The notes beneath the pieces are model-generated. The model saw nothing but the letters and a program-made list of their open reading frames with translations, did no database searches and had not been told where the DNA came from. Of a stretch of DNA of 42,544 nucleotides, positions 1 through 41,536 are shown in pieces; positions within the stretch are counted from its first letter, which is position 1; the number at the start of each line of letters is the position of its first letter. The translations under genes and the position numbers were made by a program. Source of the DNA: a virus (lineage: Duplodnaviria > Heunggongvirae > Uroviricota > Caudoviricetes); IMG/VR virus record IMGVR_UViG_2718218358_000001, positions 1 through 42,544 of that record; one strand, written 5' to 3'.

Positions 1-1248
1 ATGGCACTGAATATTCCATTCAGAAATGCGTACTATCGTTTTGCATCCAGTTACTCATTTCTCTTTTTTATTTCCTGGTCGCTGTGGTGGTCGTTATACG
101 CTATTTGGCTGAAAGGACATCTAGGGTTGACAGGGACGGAATTAGGTACACTTTATTCGGTCAACCAGTTTACCAGCATTCTATTTATGATGTTCTACGG
201 CATCGTTCAGGATAAACTCGGTCTGAAGAAACCGCTCATCTGGTGTATGAGTTTCATCCTGGTCTTGACCGGACCGTTTATGATTTACGTTTATGAACCG
301 TTACTGCAAAGCAATTTTTCTGTAGGTCTAATTCTGGGGGCGCTATTTTTTGGCTTGGGGTATCTGGCGGGATGCGGTTTGCTTGATAGCTTCACCGAAA
401 AAATGGCGCGAAATTTTCATTTCGAATATGGAACAGCGCGCGCCTGGGGATCTTTTGGCTATGCTATTGGCGCGTTCTTTGCCGGCATATTTTTTAGTAT
501 CAGTCCCCATATCAACTTCTGGTTGGTCTCGCTATTTGGCGCTGTATTTATGATGATCAACATGCGTTTTAAAGATAAGGATCACCAGTGCGTAGCGGCA
601 GATGCGGGAGGGGTAAAAAAAGAGGATTTTATCGCAGTTTTCAAGGATCGAAACTTCTGGGTTTTCGTCATATTTATTGTGGGGACGTGGTCTTTCTATA
701 ACATTTTTGATCAACAACTTTTTCCTGTCTTTTATGCAGGTTTATTCGAATCACACGATGTAGGAACGCGCCTGTATGGTTATCTCAACTCATTCCAGGT
801 GGTACTCGAAGCGCTGTGCATGGCGATTATTCCTTTCTTTGTGAATCGGGTAGGGCCAAAAAATGCATTACTTATCGGAGTTGTGATTATGGCGTTGCGT
901 ATCCTTTCCTGCGCGCTGTTCGTTAACCCCTGGATTATTTCATTAGTGAAGTTGTTACATGCCATTGAGGTTCCACTTTGTGTCATATCCGTCTTCAAAT
1001 ACAGCGTGGCAAACTTTGATAAGCGCCTGTCGTCGACGATCTTTCTGATTGGTTTTCAAATTGCCAGTTCGCTTGGGATTGTGCTGCTTTCAACGCCGAC
1101 TGGGATACTCTTTGACCACGCAGGCTACCAGACAGTTTTCTTCGCAATTTCGGGTATTGTCTGCCTGATGTTGCTATTTGGCATTTTCTTCTTGAGTAAA
1201 AAACGCGAGCAAATAGTTATGGAAACGCCTGTACCTTCAGCAATATAG
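1..1248 (+). CDS. cscB: sucrose:H+ symporter CscB (LacY / oligosaccharide:H+ symporter family, MFS)
   Basis: 415-aa ORF starting at window position 1 with about 12 hydrophobic segments; N-terminus MALNIPFRNAYYRF and overall LacY-family pattern; recognised from memory as the csc-locus permease that lies next to argW in sucrose-positive E. coli. Confidence 0.85.
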   Translation: MALNIPFRNAYYRFASSYSFLFFISWSLWWSLYAIWLKGHLGLTGTELGTLYSVNQFTSILFMMFYGIVQDKLGLKKPLIWCMSFILVLTGPFMIYVYEPLLQSNFSVGLILGALFFGLGYLAGCGLLDSFTEKMARNFHFEYGTARAWGSFGYAIGAFFAGIFFSISPHINFWLVSLFGAVFMMINMRFKDKDHQCVAADAGGVKKEDFIAVFKDRNFWVFVIFIVGTWSFYNIFDQQLFPVFYAGLFESHDVGTRLYGYLNSFQVVLEALCMAIIPFFVNRVGPKNALLIGVVIMALRILSCALFVNPWIISLVKLLHAIEVPLCVISVFKYSVANFDKRLSSTIFLIGFQIASSLGIVLLSTPTGILFDHAGYQTVFFAISGIVCLMLLFGIFFLSKKREQIVMETPVPSAI

Positions 1249-25479: not shown

Positions 25480-26001
25480 TTATTTCGATATCGTGATGTT
25501 GTTTTCCTCGTCAAACTTTCTGATTACTTCTTTCGCCTCTTCGAATGAAGAACATACTTTTTGCACTCTTGCATTAAGCAGTCGCTTATGAGCGATCCAT
25601 CTTTTCCGCGTGTTGCAAAAGTAAACTCCAGATATTCCGCTGGAGTTATTTTTAGATAGTTTGATTCTATTCCTTTGGTTTGCTGATTTTTTCACAAGAC
25701 GAAGATTTTCAATTCTGTTGTCGTGGCGAATCCCATTTATATGGTCAATTTCCATGCCTTCTGGAATATCTCCGTTAAACATTACCCATACGATGCGGTG
25801 TGCTAGCCACTTAATGCCGTTAATTCTTATGCGGATATATCCATTGCTTTCTAAAAGACCAGCAACTTTCCCAGCGTGTTTTGCATTCCAAACGTTGTGA
25901 TAGTTGCGATTCTTTTTGTTGTTGAAAAATTCAGAGCTTCTGGCTTTCCAAACCAAAGAACCATCGCGGTATTCGAAGTATTCATTCAGTTCCATGCTCA
26001 T
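25480..26001 (-). CDS. HNH homing endonuclease with AP2-type DNA-binding domain
   Basis: HNH motif EIDHINGIRHDNRIENLRLV...NQRN plus an AP2-like segment SGISGVYF...KRWIAHK; antisense to the late operon; visibly AT-rich. Confidence 0.75.
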   Translation of the reverse strand: MSMELNEYFEYRDGSLVWKARSSEFFNNKKNRNYHNVWNAKHAGKVAGLLESNGYIRIRINGIKWLAHRIVWVMFNGDIPEGMEIDHINGIRHDNRIENLRLVKKSANQRNRIKLSKNNSSGISGVYFCNTRKRWIAHKRLLNARVQKVCSSFEEAKEVIRKFDEENNITISK

Positions 26002-34955: not shown

Positions 34956-35329
34956 ACCAACCTCCTTAGTTTTGCTCAGGATACCAGATGATACTTTATT
35001 AGTGGAGTGGTGTGTGAAAACGTGTCAACGACAAACCATCCACAACTTGGACGAATGATTTAGCAAAAAGTGCTATTTTTGGTGTTTGGTGTCATAGAAA
35101 AGTGAATAGCTCACTTTTCAACATTGCATGAAACTTGCAGGAAATGTGACATTACCTTATAGGTAACTTCGGCGAAAATGCAGTAAATGTGAAATGTAAT
35201 GATTTAAACGTGTCGAGAAAGTGGTTGTAAGTTAGCCTCTGAAGGATTGATGACAGCTTTGTTATGGTATTAAATGCAACTTGACACAGTTGTATACATA
35301 GCTGCGGCTATCAAGATGGAGGTATGTTT

Positions 35330-35773
35330 ATGCTCACTTGTTTTGATGTCGCCGACTACTTCTTGGCGCATTGCGATGAAGAAAGTGGCGACATTATCTC
35401 TAACCTAAAAATTCAGAAGTTGACGTATTATGCCCAAGGGTTTTCTCTGGTTCTTCTGGGTAAGCCGCTATTTAATGAGAAAATTGAAGCCTGGATGCAT
35501 GGGCCAGTAGTTCCTGAATTGTATCGTAAATATAGGGACTGTGGTAACGGAGCTTTACCTGCGCCAGAAAACTTTGACGCTAAAAAATTCAGTGAAGATG
35601 AAATTGAATTGCTGGATGAGGTGTATAAAGTTTATGGTCAGTTTTCTGCCTGGAAACTGCGCAATATGACTCACGAAGAGCAGCCATGGAAAGATGCTTA
35701 CATTGAGGGTGCGGTTAGCCAAGAAATCACACTTGATTCTATGAAAGGTTTTTTCAAAACGTTAATTAACTGA
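35330..35773 (+). CDS. Panacea / DUF4065-domain protein (GepA/SocA/PanA-like putative antitoxin)
   Basis: motif KIQKLTYYAQGFSLVLLGKPLFNEKIEAWMHGPVVPELY; SD GGAGG 7 nt before the second ATG. Confidence 0.65.
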   Translation: MLTCFDVADYFLAHCDEESGDIISNLKIQKLTYYAQGFSLVLLGKPLFNEKIEAWMHGPVVPELYRKYRDCGNGALPAPENFDAKKFSEDEIELLDEVYKVYGQFSAWKLRNMTHEEQPWKDAYIEGAVSQEITLDSMKGFFKTLIN

Positions 35774-35778
35774 CGTGT

Positions 35779-36201
35779 ATGCCTAGAGTTAAGGGAAGAA
35801 TAAAACAGAGGGATAAAGAGAGCTCTGCTACTGTTGGCCTCTCTATCCATCACGAATCTCATGATGTAGACAAAAGTCCGCCTGTATTTTCTCTTAGATA
35901 CCTACAAAAGGGGTATTGCCTAGATTGCTGCCAAAAGCATGAAAAGGCAGCATTTGCAGATAGGCTGTTCAGGTTAAGTCAGATGTCATGGGATGAGATA
36001 CGAAAATCTGATAAACACGGGCTTGGGACGGAAAAAATTGCCAGAAACGCGATAAAGGCTCCGATTCCTAAGCATGTTACTCAAGATGTGGATTTCATTG
36101 CGTTCAGATTTTGCTCTAAGGCACCTATGGTTGGTTATAAGATAGGAGCCACTTTTTATGTCTTATGGCTCGACAGGGAGTTCAAGCTATACAAGCACTA
36201 A
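35779..36201 (+). CDS. unassigned 140-aa partner protein (candidate toxin/effector)
   Basis: starts 6 nt after the upstream stop (operon); no family recognised; followed directly by a terminator. Confidence 0.5.
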   Translation: MPRVKGRIKQRDKESSATVGLSIHHESHDVDKSPPVFSLRYLQKGYCLDCCQKHEKAAFADRLFRLSQMSWDEIRKSDKHGLGTEKIARNAIKAPIPKHVTQDVDFIAFRFCSKAPMVGYKIGATFYVLWLDREFKLYKH

Positions 36202-36967: not shown

Positions 36968-37846
36968 ATGAAAAGTATAGCAAAGGCACAAAACGATTTC
37001 ACCATCTTCAAATTCGGCGACAGTGAAATCCGCGTCATCAACAAGTGCGGTGAGCCGTGGTTTGTAGCAAAAGATGTTTGTGATGCTTTAACCCTGACTA
37101 ACTCACGCAAGGCGCTTACTGCACTTGATGACGATGAAAAGGGAGTAACTTTAAGTTACACCCTTGGTGGTGAGCAGAATCTAAGCATTGTGAGCGAATC
37201 AGGTATGTATACATTGGTTCTGCGCTGCCGCTATGCAGTCAATAAAGGTTCGGTCCCGCACAAATTCCGCAAGTGGGTAACAGCAGAAGTTCTGCCTTCA
37301 ATTCGCAAACATGGCGAGTATGTAAAAGGAAAGAAAACCACTGTTGATGACAGGACTCCGCTTCGTGATGCTGTAAATATGCTAGTCAGCAAAAAGCATC
37401 TAATGTACCCAGAAGCTTATGCAATGATTCATCAGCGTTTCAATGTGGAAAGTATTGAAGAGCTTGATGCATCTCAGATACCGCAAGCCGTAGAGTACAT
37501 CCACAGGGTAGTGCTTGAAGGTGAATTTATCGGCAAACAAGAGAAGAAAACCGACGAGCTTTCTGCAAAAGAAGCAAACAGCCTTGTATGGTTATGGGAT
37601 TATGCCAACCGCTCACAGGCATTATTCCGCGAATTGTATCCGGCGCTAAAACAAATTCAATCGAACTATTCCGGCAGATGTCATGACTGCGGTTATGAGT
37701 TCTCCCGTATTATCGATATGGCGAGAGACGTTTTAATCAATCACACACGAGATGTTGATATCAATGAGCCAGACGGACCAACGAATCTTTCCGCATGGAT
37801 GAGACTTAAGAATAAAGAATTACCTCCTTCAGTACATAACTACTGA
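36968..37846 (+). CDS. ant: antirepressor Ant (BRO-N/AntA N-terminal domain)
   Basis: [45 protein letters not shown]; position after arc as in P22 immI. Confidence 0.7.
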
Positions 37847-37865
37847 CAGATAACCAACGCAACGA

Positions 37866-37888
37866 CCCAGCTTCGGCTGGGTTTTTTT
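37866..37888 (+). terminator. rho-independent terminator after ant
   Basis: CCCAGC-TTCG-GCTGGG followed by T7. Confidence 0.6.
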
Positions 37889-37946
37889 ATGCCCAAAATT
37901 CACCGTAGCCATGCTGCGGCGATTCCTTGTATCTGGAGCAAATTAA

Positions 37947-39968
37947 ATGACAGATTCAATAAATGCCAATGTTGTAGTGAGCATGCCATCGCAACTCTTC
38001 ACTATGGCTCGTTCTTTTAAAGCAGTTGCCAATGGCAAAATTTATATCGGTAAAATTGACACTGACCCGGTAAATCCTGAAAACCAGATTCAGGTTTATG
38101 TGGAGAACGAAGACGGTTCTCACGTTCCTGTTGCACAGCCAATCATCATTAACGCTGCTGGTTACCCTGTATATAATGGACAGATTTCCAAATTCGTAAC
38201 TGTGCAAGGCCATTCTATGGCTGTTTATGATGCGTACGGTGTGCAGCAGTTCAAATTCCCAAATGTGCTGAAGTATGACCCTGATCAATTAAGAGAGGAA
38301 TTATCTAGTAAAGGTGGTTTTAATTTAGTTGGTGAGTTGGGTGCTGTATCTGATTTTTATGGAATGGAATCTAATAATGGAGATAAGGTTTTACTAAAGT
38401 CATGGTATCGAGATGGAAGTGGTGGTGGTGGTATTTTTGAGTTTAATGACAGCATAATAAGGTCGAAGCATGACGGAGGGTGTATAATATCACCATCAGT
38501 TCCATATATTGGAGATGCATATGTATCAGACTATGTAAACGGAGTTGGAGATGAACATCCATCATCAAACGGTTGTTGGGTTAGAAGAGACATCAAAGAA
38601 ATCACAGGTGAAATGTATGGTATGCATGGAAATCCTGATGATAACTTGGACTTATCACCAAATCTAAGGAAGGCCATTTCAGCCGCCGGAGTTCTTGGGC
38701 TTGGGGTCGTTTTACCAGGCAATATTATAAATTTAAAATCACCAGTATCAATACCAATACACCAGAGAGAAGGTGGAAAAGTAGCTTATATAAGAGGTGT
38801 TGACGAAAAGTTATCAATAGTAAATATACTAGCTTCAGAAACTTCGCAGAATAATTTCGGTATTTATCTTGATGGCTCTCTTTCAGTATTTTCATCATTC
38901 CCCATAGAAAACCTCACCATCAGATCTGTAGATTCAAGTGGCAATAGATCTGACTGGTCAGGATGTGGATTAAATATAAACAAATGCATCAGGCTTTCAA
39001 TGAGGAATGTTCTGATAGATGGCTTTGAGATTGGGTGTAAACTGAAAGATTCATTATATCTTGAGTTTAACAATTGTAGATTTACTTATAACAAAACAGC
39101 AATACAAGGAAGACTTGGTGAAGTGTCAGGACCAAACTCAATAAGACTTTCACGCTGTGATTTTCAGTACAATGCTGAATTTTGTATAGAAAACCAACAC
39201 GCACACGCTTGGAAAATTGACACTTGTACGTTTGAAGCAAATGGAGGGAAATCATATTCCAACGGGACTCCAATTGCATTTAATTCGTGCGTACAGTTTG
39301 CGTTGATTGGTGGTGCAGGTCGTGTCGCAGCAACAATTGATAATTGCTATTTCGAATCAAATACTGGTTCTGATGTGAGTTTTTACATAAACAGAAACTT
39401 AAATCAAATTATTAACATAAATAATTCAATATTTAACTATAATTTAGATTCCGTTAGCGCATCTAGAGTTATAGTACAATCAAATCAATCAGATCTCAGT
39501 TCTGGTGTTCAATGTTATTTGAATATGATGGGAAATGGTTTTCTTAACACTGGTGCTTCTGCTGAATCTGCATTTAAAGAAGTGCAATTTGCCGTCCCTT
39601 CATCTTTTGGCGTTAGCCATCTTGTTTTTACAGACTTTGGCAACCAAAATTCAATGAAATCACCATATTCTGGATTGGAAAAAGTTCAGAGAAATAGCCA
39701 AGGGCTGGTATCGGCAAGAGCAAATATTTCATCTACAGGTGCTTATTCATTAGCTCAGAACATATCAAATGTATCTAGACTGTCACCAGGAACATATAAG
39801 ATAGATTTTACATTTAACGTTTCAACACTCGTTCCAAATATTACATTGTTTGGAGGATCTGGTAGATATTCAAGTTTCTCAAGGGATTCAGACTATTCAA
39901 TTACGGTTAAGACATTTAATAATACAGGTGCCAATGTTGATTTGGATTTTATTATTACAGTAATGTAA
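37947..39968 (+). CDS. tailspike protein (P22 gp9-type head-binding N-terminus; divergent beta-helix receptor-binding body)
   Basis: N-terminal 110 aa ([37 protein letters not shown]...[14 protein letters not shown]...NVLKYDPDQ) match the remembered P22 tailspike head-binding domain; remainder Asn/Ser/Gly-rich with beta-helix-like repeats and AT-rich. Confidence 0.85.
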
Positions 39969-40142
39969 AAACACACTCTTATAGCGCTAGTGTAATTTAT
40001 ATGCTTGGCAATAGAAGATCTCACCTTCTACCAAAGCATCAATTACAAATGTGTTGATGTCTTTATTAAGACAAAATTGAGACACACAAAGCTTTGTACT
40101 GGACTGCAAGGCTTTGTGCTATTCGATAGTTATTAATGTCGC

Positions 40143-41300
40143 TCACTCCGCCTTTTCATCAATCCAATCCGCCCACCACTGCATCATTTCTCTGCGCTTA
40201 TCGAGATACTGAGCATGGTTGTAAACCCCGCGCACAGATCCGCCATTGGCATGTGCCAGTTGCACTTCAATAGCGTCAGCAGGCCATTCGTGCTCGTTCA
40301 TAATCGTGCTGAATTCATGCCTGAATCCGTGACCGCTTTCCAGCCCCTCATAGCCGATTTGTTTGATCACAAGTAGCACCGCGTTCTCGCAGATTGGCTT
40401 CTTCTTATCGTTGCGTCCGGCAAAAACAAACTCTGATACCGGTTTAGTGATTGAGCTTAGCGTAGTGAGAAGTTCAATAACCTGGTCCGACATAGGAACC
40501 ACATGAATCTTGCGTCCTTTCATCACACTGGCGTCGATGGTGATAATCCTGTTTTCAAAATCGACGTTCTTCCATAGCATGGAACGAAGCTCTTTCGTTC
40601 TTATGGCTGTGTAGCGTAAAATTTTGGTCGCAATGAGCGATACGATACTTCCTGAAAATGTTGCCAGTGCTTTGTTGAATGCCGGGATCTGGTCTGCAGG
40701 AAGAAACGGGAAGTTCTTCTTGCGGTATCCCTTCATGGCGTCAGCAAGGTCAGGTGCCGGGTTATATTTAGCCCTTCCGGTGACAATAGCGTAACGGAAA
40801 ACCTCGCCGCATCTTCTGCGTGCTTTGTTGGCTCGTTCCATTGCACCGCGATCTTCAAACCTGCGGATTACTTCCAGCAGTTGCATCGGCTCAATATCCT
40901 GAATTTCAAGGCCGCCAATGATAGGTAAAATGTCGTCGTCAAACATTTTGGCAAGTTCAGTTGCATACCCTACTGACCATACTTGCTTCTTGTGCTCGTA
41001 CCATTCCTTGTAAATCGCACTAAATGAATTGTTGTTAGACGAAGCCTTTTTCGCCTTTACCGGATCGATGCCAACCGAGATGTCTTTCCTCGCAGTCCAT
41101 GCCTTATCCCTTGCTTCCTGCAAAGTCATAAGCGGATATTTTCCGACGGTCAGGATTTTCTCCTTACCGTCAATCTTGTAGCGAAGCTGCCATACCTTTT
41201 TCCCTGACACAGGGACATAAAGGTACAGGCCATTACCATCGAGAAGGCGGTATGGTTTTTCTTTCGGCTTTGCTGCTTCAATCTGCTTAACGGTGAGCAT
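40143..41300 (-). CDS. intS: tyrosine integrase, IntS type
   Basis: 385 aa from the ATG at 41300 (track start at 41336 is a GTG without SD); recognised as the argW-prophage integrase; C-terminal catalytic region with HGFRHEFST and Tyr. Confidence 0.9.
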   Translation of the reverse strand: MLTVKQIEAAKPKEKPYRLLDGNGLYLYVPVSGKKVWQLRYKIDGKEKILTVGKYPLMTLQEARDKAWTARKDISVGIDPVKAKKASSNNNSFSAIYKEWYEHKKQVWSVGYATELAKMFDDDILPIIGGLEIQDIEPMQLLEVIRRFEDRGAMERANKARRRCGEVFRYAIVTGRAKYNPAPDLADAMKGYRKKNFPFLPADQIPAFNKALATFSGSIVSLIATKILRYTAIRTKELRSMLWKNVDFENRIITIDASVMKGRKIHVVPMSDQVIELLTTLSSITKPVSEFVFAGRNDKKKPICENAVLLVIKQIGYEGLESGHGFRHEFSTIMNEHEWPADAIEVQLAHANGGSVRGVYNHAQYLDKRREMMQWWADWIDEKAE

Positions 41301-41461
41301 GGGTAAAAATCCGGTGGGTAAAATTATTTTATCCACTTTTTACCCGTCATGGAGTGCGGCTGTCAACGATCTGAAGCGAACCATGACGAACTGTGAATCT
41401 ACGGAAGGCTTGATATTCAGGGGATTTTGCGGACTGGTACGGATGGGAGCGAACTGATAAA

Positions 41462-41476
41462 TGGTGTCCCCTGCAG
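41462..41476. repeat. att core copy at the intS-proximal junction, inside the argW 3' end
   Basis: exact match to 1690..1704. Confidence 0.7.
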
Positions 41477-41536
41477 GAATCGAACCTGCAATTAGCCCTT
41501 AGGAGGGGCTCGTTATATCCATTTAACTAAGAGGAC
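41462..41536 (-). tRNA. argW: tRNA-Arg (anticodon CCU), argW
   Basis: minus strand reads GTCCTCTTAGTTAAATGGATATAACGAGCCCCTCCTAAGGGCTAATTGCAGGTTCGATTCCTGCAGGGGACACCA; cloverleaf with T-loop GGTTCGATTCC and terminal CCA. Confidence 0.85.

Follow-up and report, generated by a model that had tools for sequence, protein, structure and literature searches.

The stretch of DNA analysed here, the 42,544 nt of IMG/VR virus record IMGVR_UViG_2718218358_000001 (positions 1 to 42,544; hereafter the window), carries at positions 37947-39968 on the + strand the tailspike gene of a P22/Sf6-like prophage in Escherichia coli, in which a P22-type head-binding domain is joined to a different β-helix body. The overall results argue, with a probability that we put at roughly 0.8, for a P22-type tailspike with an exchanged β-helix module that binds and cleaves a surface polysaccharide, most likely O-antigen; within this reading we infer the trimeric state, the cleavage chemistry, the catalytic residues and the identity of the glycan.

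The gene was taken from the open reading frame (ORF) list, with an ATG start and 673 amino acids (aa) plus stop, and direct reading of the sequence places a Shine-Dalgarno GGAG (37935-37938, + strand) 8 nt upstream of the ATG. Residues 1-114, with DPDQ at their end, form the head-binding (virion attachment) domain (37947-38288, + strand): aa 4-114 match Pfam Head_binding PF09008 (E=1.5e-63, 212.5 bits with a cut-off of 24), the P22-type PDB matches of the domain are 7sg7, 2vky and 1lkt, and its identity is 89.5% to Sf6 gp14 and 74.5% to P22. In a PDB-wide sequence search with the whole tailspike, the only significant matches were Sf6 gp14 (7sg7, E=1.8e-61), several P22 entries and WceF. No sequence homology to the P22/Sf6 catalytic body was found past ~aa 125, the phmmer alignments to 8tvr, 2xc1, 5gai and 7sg7 ending at query aa 119-125; likewise, the best PHROGs matches are to many tail spike families, over the N-terminus only. 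Scans of the protein against NCBIfam and PADLOC gave no matches, and its exact sequence is absent from the gene catalogue searched. An earlier reading of the DNA, the original prediction, had proposed a P22-type head-binding N-terminus followed by an AT-rich, Asn/Ser/Gly-rich body with no resemblance to the P22 endorhamnosidase body, and on each of these points the results agree with it, the body containing 12.7% Ser, 10.4% Gly and 9.5% Asn.

Structure prediction and a Foldseek search of aa 115-673, which had been suggested as a check, point to a pectate-lyase-fold β-helix resembling tailspike depolymerases. The AlphaFold2 model, a monomer built from an alignment of 14 homologues (predicted local distance difference test score, pLDDT, 83.8; predicted template modelling score, pTM, 0.79) with strands assigned by DSSP, has three parts. 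The linker and small N-terminal subdomain (aa 115-213, with HDGG at 175-178 and GCWVR at 209-213; 38289-38585, + strand), delimited from representative matches and relatives, appear in the model as a small mixed subdomain over full-length aa ~124-225. A capping helix (aa 237-250) and a right-handed parallel β-helix (aa ~254-565), the body fold of P22-type tailspikes, are predicted for 38655-39641 (+ strand). The C-terminal β-sandwich domain (aa ~580-673; 39684-39965, + strand), defined by DSSP strands over model residues 466-558 at pLDDT ~87-93, is conserved in the family and can be aligned to the C-termini of Sf11 gp13 and the Sf101 tailspike (TSP). The fold neighbours are Geobacillus virus E2 ORF18, CBA120 TSP2, Acinetobacter Fri1 gp49, Klebsiella KP32gp38 and WceF; others are the lyase RbmB, alginate epimerases and polygalacturonase, and also the β-helix adhesins PfbA and Vag8. 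Foldseek on the PDB and BFVD libraries agrees with β-helix tailspike neighbours. The body itself gives no Pfam match to Pectate_lyase_3 (PF12708) or Beta_helix (PF13229); 11 of its 22 relatives match PF13229, with E down to 6e-8, which supports the fold class but not formal membership.

Many tailspikes whose β-helices differ have the N-terminal subdomain of this body in common. PF27114 (Phage_tail_beta), on which we found no literature, is a precomputed match on this subdomain in all 14 relatives, being labelled 'weak' on the 98%-identical P0001. The subdomain at aa 124-213 is common to P0012-P0014 at 44% identity, and in these proteins a Pectate_lyase_3-type helix follows directly after GCWVR; this switch of helix indicates, on sequence grounds, a second module boundary inside the body at aa 209-213 (38571-38585).

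Family alignments and the DSSP register place five stacked xCxFxxN rungs at aa 376, 403, 426, 466 and 493, and the segment that holds those with the most conserved polar residues (39072-39374, + strand) is our proposed substrate groove, with its candidate catalytic carboxylates. The repeat motifs quoted in the original prediction are present, NCRFTYN at aa 376-382, NCYFESNTG at aa 466-474 and a third repeat segment at aa 446-458. In the DSSP register R378, D405, E430, Y468 and E470 take outward positions of one sheet, with D476 on the next strand; these and R403 are the most conserved polar residues of the rungs (E430 is encoded at 39234-39236, E470 at 39354-39356 and D476 at 39372-39374). E430 and E470 are invariant in family alignments of 19 and 22 sequences, and E430, E470, D476 and R403 are kept in the Sf101/Sf11 tailspikes as well. 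The endoglycosidase sites of P22, Sf6 and HK620 are characterised by two to three carboxylates on neighbouring rungs. Because the body has carboxylates on adjacent rungs, as in these three, a glycoside hydrolase acting on O-antigen is favoured, and E430, E470 and D476 probably constitute its machinery.

With respect to mechanism, aa 1-114 would attach the spike to the tail machine, the role that this domain has in P22 and Sf6, and aa 115-673, comprising the small shared N-terminal subdomain, the β-helix and the C-terminal β-sandwich, would act as the receptor module. Other β-helix tailspikes suggest by analogy that the trimer would bind a serotype-specific polysaccharide of the cell surface, most probably O-antigen; cleavage of the glycan would proceed along the groove of stacked rungs and allow the virion to move down to the outer membrane. 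O-acyltransferase genes adjoin the Hafnia homologue and the Sf101 tailspike, which, along with the usual O-antigen target of P22-like tailspikes (PMC2629481), points to a surface glycan. Infection by Sf11 depends on O-antigen (PMC12724387).

Several points weigh against an O-antigen hydrolase. The groove placement of E430, E470 and D476 in the model is given by strand register alone, and the adjoining loop, aa 433-457 (39243-39317), which is among the most conserved segments of the family, is the only part of the model with pLDDT <50; it may be ordered only in the trimer or form part of an intersubunit site like that of Sf6. For no member of the body family has an enzymatic activity been demonstrated or the structure of the body been solved. 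The fold neighbours include lyases and epimerases besides hydrolases, and thus the chemistry is not fixed by the fold; in addition, the Kagunavirus and Kayfunavirus backbones of relatives belong to genera with capsule-specific phages, such that a capsule target is possible. Finally, the ORF list has no O-antigen-modifying gene next to the tailspike gene in this prophage, since the tailspike and integrase stops are separated by only ~175 nt (39969-40142); in contrast, Sf101 has oacB at the spacer position after the tailspike and the Hafnia homologue has an adjoining Acyl_transf_3+SGNH gene.

It is accordingly conceivable, but in our view unlikely, that the same mosaic tailspike has as its body a polysaccharide lyase, or a depolymerase of capsule or exopolysaccharide (K-antigen, colanic acid), rather than an O-antigen hydrolase. 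Against this stands the set of polar residues with the widest conservation, two Glu and one Asp, which has the pattern typical of tailspike glycosidases (P22, Sf6, HK620) and not of Lys/Arg/Ca2+ lyase sites. Moreover, the remote relatives Sf101, SfX and Sf11 act on non-capsulated Shigella flexneri, Sf11 in an O-antigen-dependent manner, and most characterised P22-like tailspikes target O-antigen (PMC2629481). We consider it improbable that the body only binds glycan without catalysis, or that it is a glycan deacetylase or esterase. Beyond the N-terminus no catalytic-domain family was matched in Pfam, NCBIfam or PHROGs, the adhesins PfbA and Vag8 are among the fold neighbours, and β-helix esterases exist, e.g. 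pectin methylesterases; however, the carboxylates are invariant on adjacent rungs in relatives down to ~25% identity, the nearest fold neighbours are mostly active depolymerases, and there is no SGNH/GDSL signature. An esterase domain of the latter type, as in phage G7C gp63.1, was not found in the Pfam, NCBIfam and PHROGs scans, and the predicted fold is instead a β-helix; the esterase that the original prediction had allowed as an alternative to a depolymerase therefore lacks support, no SGNH/GDSL or other esterase family having been matched.

The body, for which an O-antigen hydrolase remains our preferred assignment, belongs to a small family: 1.84 billion representatives yield 16 clusters at E<1e-30, and of the 369 representative matches most align only to body residues 1 to ~130. 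A first scan of 185,579 GTDB species representatives gave no relatives, and the matches of a second, alignment-based (A3) scan, in Bacteroidota and Paenibacillus, were confined to the shared N-terminal subdomain. The carriers of the body are a few assemblies and one IMG/VR contig. Relatives over the full length of the body, with the same subdomain order, are the E. coli prophage protein P0001 (98% identity), the metagenomic proteins P0002-P0010 (48-63%), P0011 of Hafnia paralvei (48%) and, among isolated phages, the tailspike of Hafnia phage Pocitis76 (33%, the best identity of the body to any isolated phage protein), Providencia phage EPr2 (27%) and Cronobacter phage Peggy (26%).

The N-terminal adaptors of these uncharacterised relatives differ from that of the window's tailspike, being of PF18668, T7 fibre N-terminus or Kagunavirus type. 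Homologous bodies occur behind a different P22-type head-binding domain in P0006, behind a T7-fibre N-terminus on a Kayfunavirus backbone in P0003, with a Kagunavirus tail in P0002 and in a Hafnia prophage with baseplate genes in P0011; at each of these four loci the body lies 4-9 GC points under its flanks. Judging from the sequences, the fusion of bodies of 48-63% identity to other adaptors also records older exchanges, and the same receptor module circulates in coliphages whose tail adaptors are of four kinds.

Conserved head-binding domains (aa 1-115) with unrelated β-helix receptor modules were described for P22-like phages in 2008 (PMC2629481), and the architecture and its evolutionary logic were therefore already known. 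Like Sf6 gp14 (7sg7, 2vbk) and P22 gp9, the tailspike has a head-binding domain that ends at the same DPDQ motif and an N-terminal adaptor followed by a β-helix body, and is encoded by the last late gene, after the ant moron and next to the integrase gene. Unlike theirs, its body carries an additional N-terminal subdomain, and the C-terminal β-sandwich is of another type; the fold resembles that of Sf6 TSP in a generic way only (Foldseek E=7e-8, TM ~0.36). With the P22-like phages Sf101 and SfX and with gp13 of the siphophage Sf11, the body shares the second half of the β-helix and the C-terminal domain, including the motifs FE(A/G)NG and YFE(S/A)N. This relation is remote and at profile level only: the family profile matches Shigella phage Sf11 gp13 with a domain E=8e-17, and hhalign of the family against Sf101 TSP gives a probability of 93%, E=3.5e-7 and ~21% identity. 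Sf101 has the same head-binding domain as the window's tailspike but not the aa 124-213 subdomain of its body, the N-terminal subdomain thus not being shared. We found no published enzymology for the body family or for Sf101 and other relatives, and no published enzymology or body structure for the Sf101, SfX and Sf11 tailspikes; 9occ (Sf11 gp13) was dropped as a structural template, only aa 4-59, the N-terminal helices, being modelled (PMC12724387). CBA120 TSP2 (5w6p/6w4q), Fri1 gp49 (6c72), Klebsiella KP32gp38 and K2-2 TSP (9qrm, 8iqe) and Geobacillus virus E2 ORF18 (7chu) have 10-16% identity to the body and unrelated specificities.

Comparison with the closest prophages, those of other E. 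coli assemblies with P0001 at argW and that of one IMG/VR contig, reveals that a cassette of ~1.8 kb, bounded by recombination, has recently moved between diverged prophage backbones. Relative to the window, the head-binding segment has 11.4% mismatches, the body 0.94% and the integrase gene ~5% (Fisher p=1.4e-18 for head-binding segment versus body); a synonymous divergence, pS, of 0.28-0.30 for the head-binding part contrasts with 0.016-0.021 for the body. The mismatch map against L002 and L006 assigns to the exchanged cassette positions 38262-40096 (no strand), comprising the tailspike body and most of the downstream spacer; the step in mismatch density lies between 38261 and 38448 at the left edge and at ~40097 at the right edge. 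The cassette is ~99% identical between prophages, whereas its flanks differ by 5-11%, which is the basis for the recent movement. Phage Dewey is homologous at the nucleotide level up to 38287, in the Q codon of DPDQ (codon 114), and again from 40153, within the integrase gene; this places the junction just after the head-binding domain, where it had been proposed. Of 5,426 complete E. coli genomes, 1,107 match the tailspike gene, only over nt 1 to ~357-383, and none matches the body by megablast or sensitive blastn. The module entered by homologous recombination, whose left-hand site was the conserved DPDQ/linker and whose right-hand site was the spacer preceding the integrase gene. Both breakpoints can be placed to within ~30-100 nt, and the locus is a well-delimited natural case of module exchange. 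Upstream, in the antirepressor gene, one 150-nt bin (37353-37502) has 52 mismatches to the sister prophage L002 compared with 6-16 in the adjoining bins, suggesting another small mosaic patch.

The base composition of the gene is likewise not uniform, as the original prediction had read from the letters. The head-binding part has a GC content of 42.1% and the body one of 35.7%, compared with 46.7% in the window and ~50% in the late genes, the body being the lowest-GC 1.68-kb stretch in the window (0.2% quantile of sliding windows). GC at third codon positions (GC3) falls from 39.5% in the head-binding part to 23.8% in the body (Fisher p=0.001; p=1e-34 for body versus late-gene GC3), and GC at codon positions 1+2 is 43.4% versus 41.8%; the drop, being almost wholly at third positions, is therefore a signal of codon usage and not an amino-acid effect. 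That there was no horizontal acquisition, the AT-richness reflecting an Asn/Ser/Ile-rich, fast-evolving domain or a generally low-GC right arm of the prophage, is very improbable, since the modest within-gene difference in total GC (p=0.03) and the ~40% GC, below the window average, already reached from ~34.8 kb on are outweighed by a GC3 drop of 16 points with unchanged GC at positions 1+2, a 12-fold change in divergence from sister prophages exactly at the junction, the end of homology to other P22-like phages at codon 114 and the presence of the body on unrelated phage backbones. An explanation of the AT shift by composition only was rejected on the sister-prophage divergence, pS and GC3 results, and the proposed horizontal acquisition of the body is upheld by the same comparisons.

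The tailspike follows a textbook pattern; it is not a new kind of system and does not change the understanding of tailspikes. What is specific to the locus is a rare, uncharacterised body family and precisely mappable breakpoints, and its value is correspondingly that of a candidate enzyme and a clean recombination case. More tentatively, and with the odds somewhat against it, the body and its ~16 cluster-level relatives may represent an uncharacterised depolymerase family, a new glycoside-hydrolase family with a glycan specificity beyond those of characterised coliphages; the family has no catalytic-domain model in the libraries searched and a conserved Glu-Glu-Asp set on the FE(A/G)NGG and YFE(S/A)N rungs. 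Were this so, the remote link to Sf101, SfX and Sf11 would offer a first way into the mechanism of those Shigella tailspikes as well. The receptor modules of tailspikes determine phage host range, and serotype-specific depolymerases for typing, therapy and glycan engineering are sought among them.

The window apparently holds a complete P22/Sf6-like prophage of ~39.8 kb at argW of an E. coli-type chromosome, the flanking chromosome being 97.7% identical to E. coli K-12 and the late region 95-96% identical in nucleotides to coliphages IME10, Dewey and Louie. The tailspike gene is the last late gene, 3' of the ant moron, as in P22-type genomes. On its 5' side are genes for a gp20-type injection protein and a gp16-like protein, a small moron region, an Arc-like repressor and a Bro-N/P22_AR_C antirepressor; between the antirepressor and tailspike genes a consensus scan gave a putative terminator-like hairpin and T-run (37864-37893, + strand), with a stem of 8 bp including 5 GC pairs followed by TTTTTTT. 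The gene 3' of the tailspike gene, and convergent with it, encodes an IntS-like tyrosine integrase (40143-41336, - strand; Pfam Phage_integrase, Phage_int_M and Arm-DNA-bind_3) and is called intS in E. coli genomes. Beyond it lie argW, a tRNA-Arg(CCT) gene identified by ARAGORN (41462-41536, - strand) that is the attachment site on the attR side, and then yfdC; the yfdC-argW-intS arrangement is present in E. coli genomes. A 15-nt repeat of the argW 3' end at 1690-1704 probably marks the attL core, from which the prophage length of ~39.8 kb follows. A second argW fragment near the left end, 16 nt of the T-arm region at 1998-2013, may be a remnant of an earlier integration. Identity of the prophage with phage Kapi1, also found at argW, was rejected because no isolated phage record has the body at >33% identity.

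Some other genes in the window are of note. Just outside the prophage, 1-1248 (+ strand) encodes a 415-aa LacY-family sugar symporter (PF01306, E=1e-193), which in size and argW-adjacent position seems to resemble the sucrose permease CscB of csc-positive E. coli. An HNH endonuclease gene (25480-26001, - strand; PF13392, E=4e-22) lies between the scaffold and coat genes on the opposite strand, and is at the same site in phage Dewey. Two small ORFs (35324-36201, + strand) lie in the low-GC moron region, which has the gp16-like gene on one side and the immI/ant region on the other. The first, of 149 aa, has a SocA/Panacea antitoxin domain (PF13274, E=2e-24), and the second, 5 nt after it and of 140 aa, has no Pfam match and a weak PADLOC match to NsnC (E=2e-7); the pair may be a toxin-antitoxin or defence moron.
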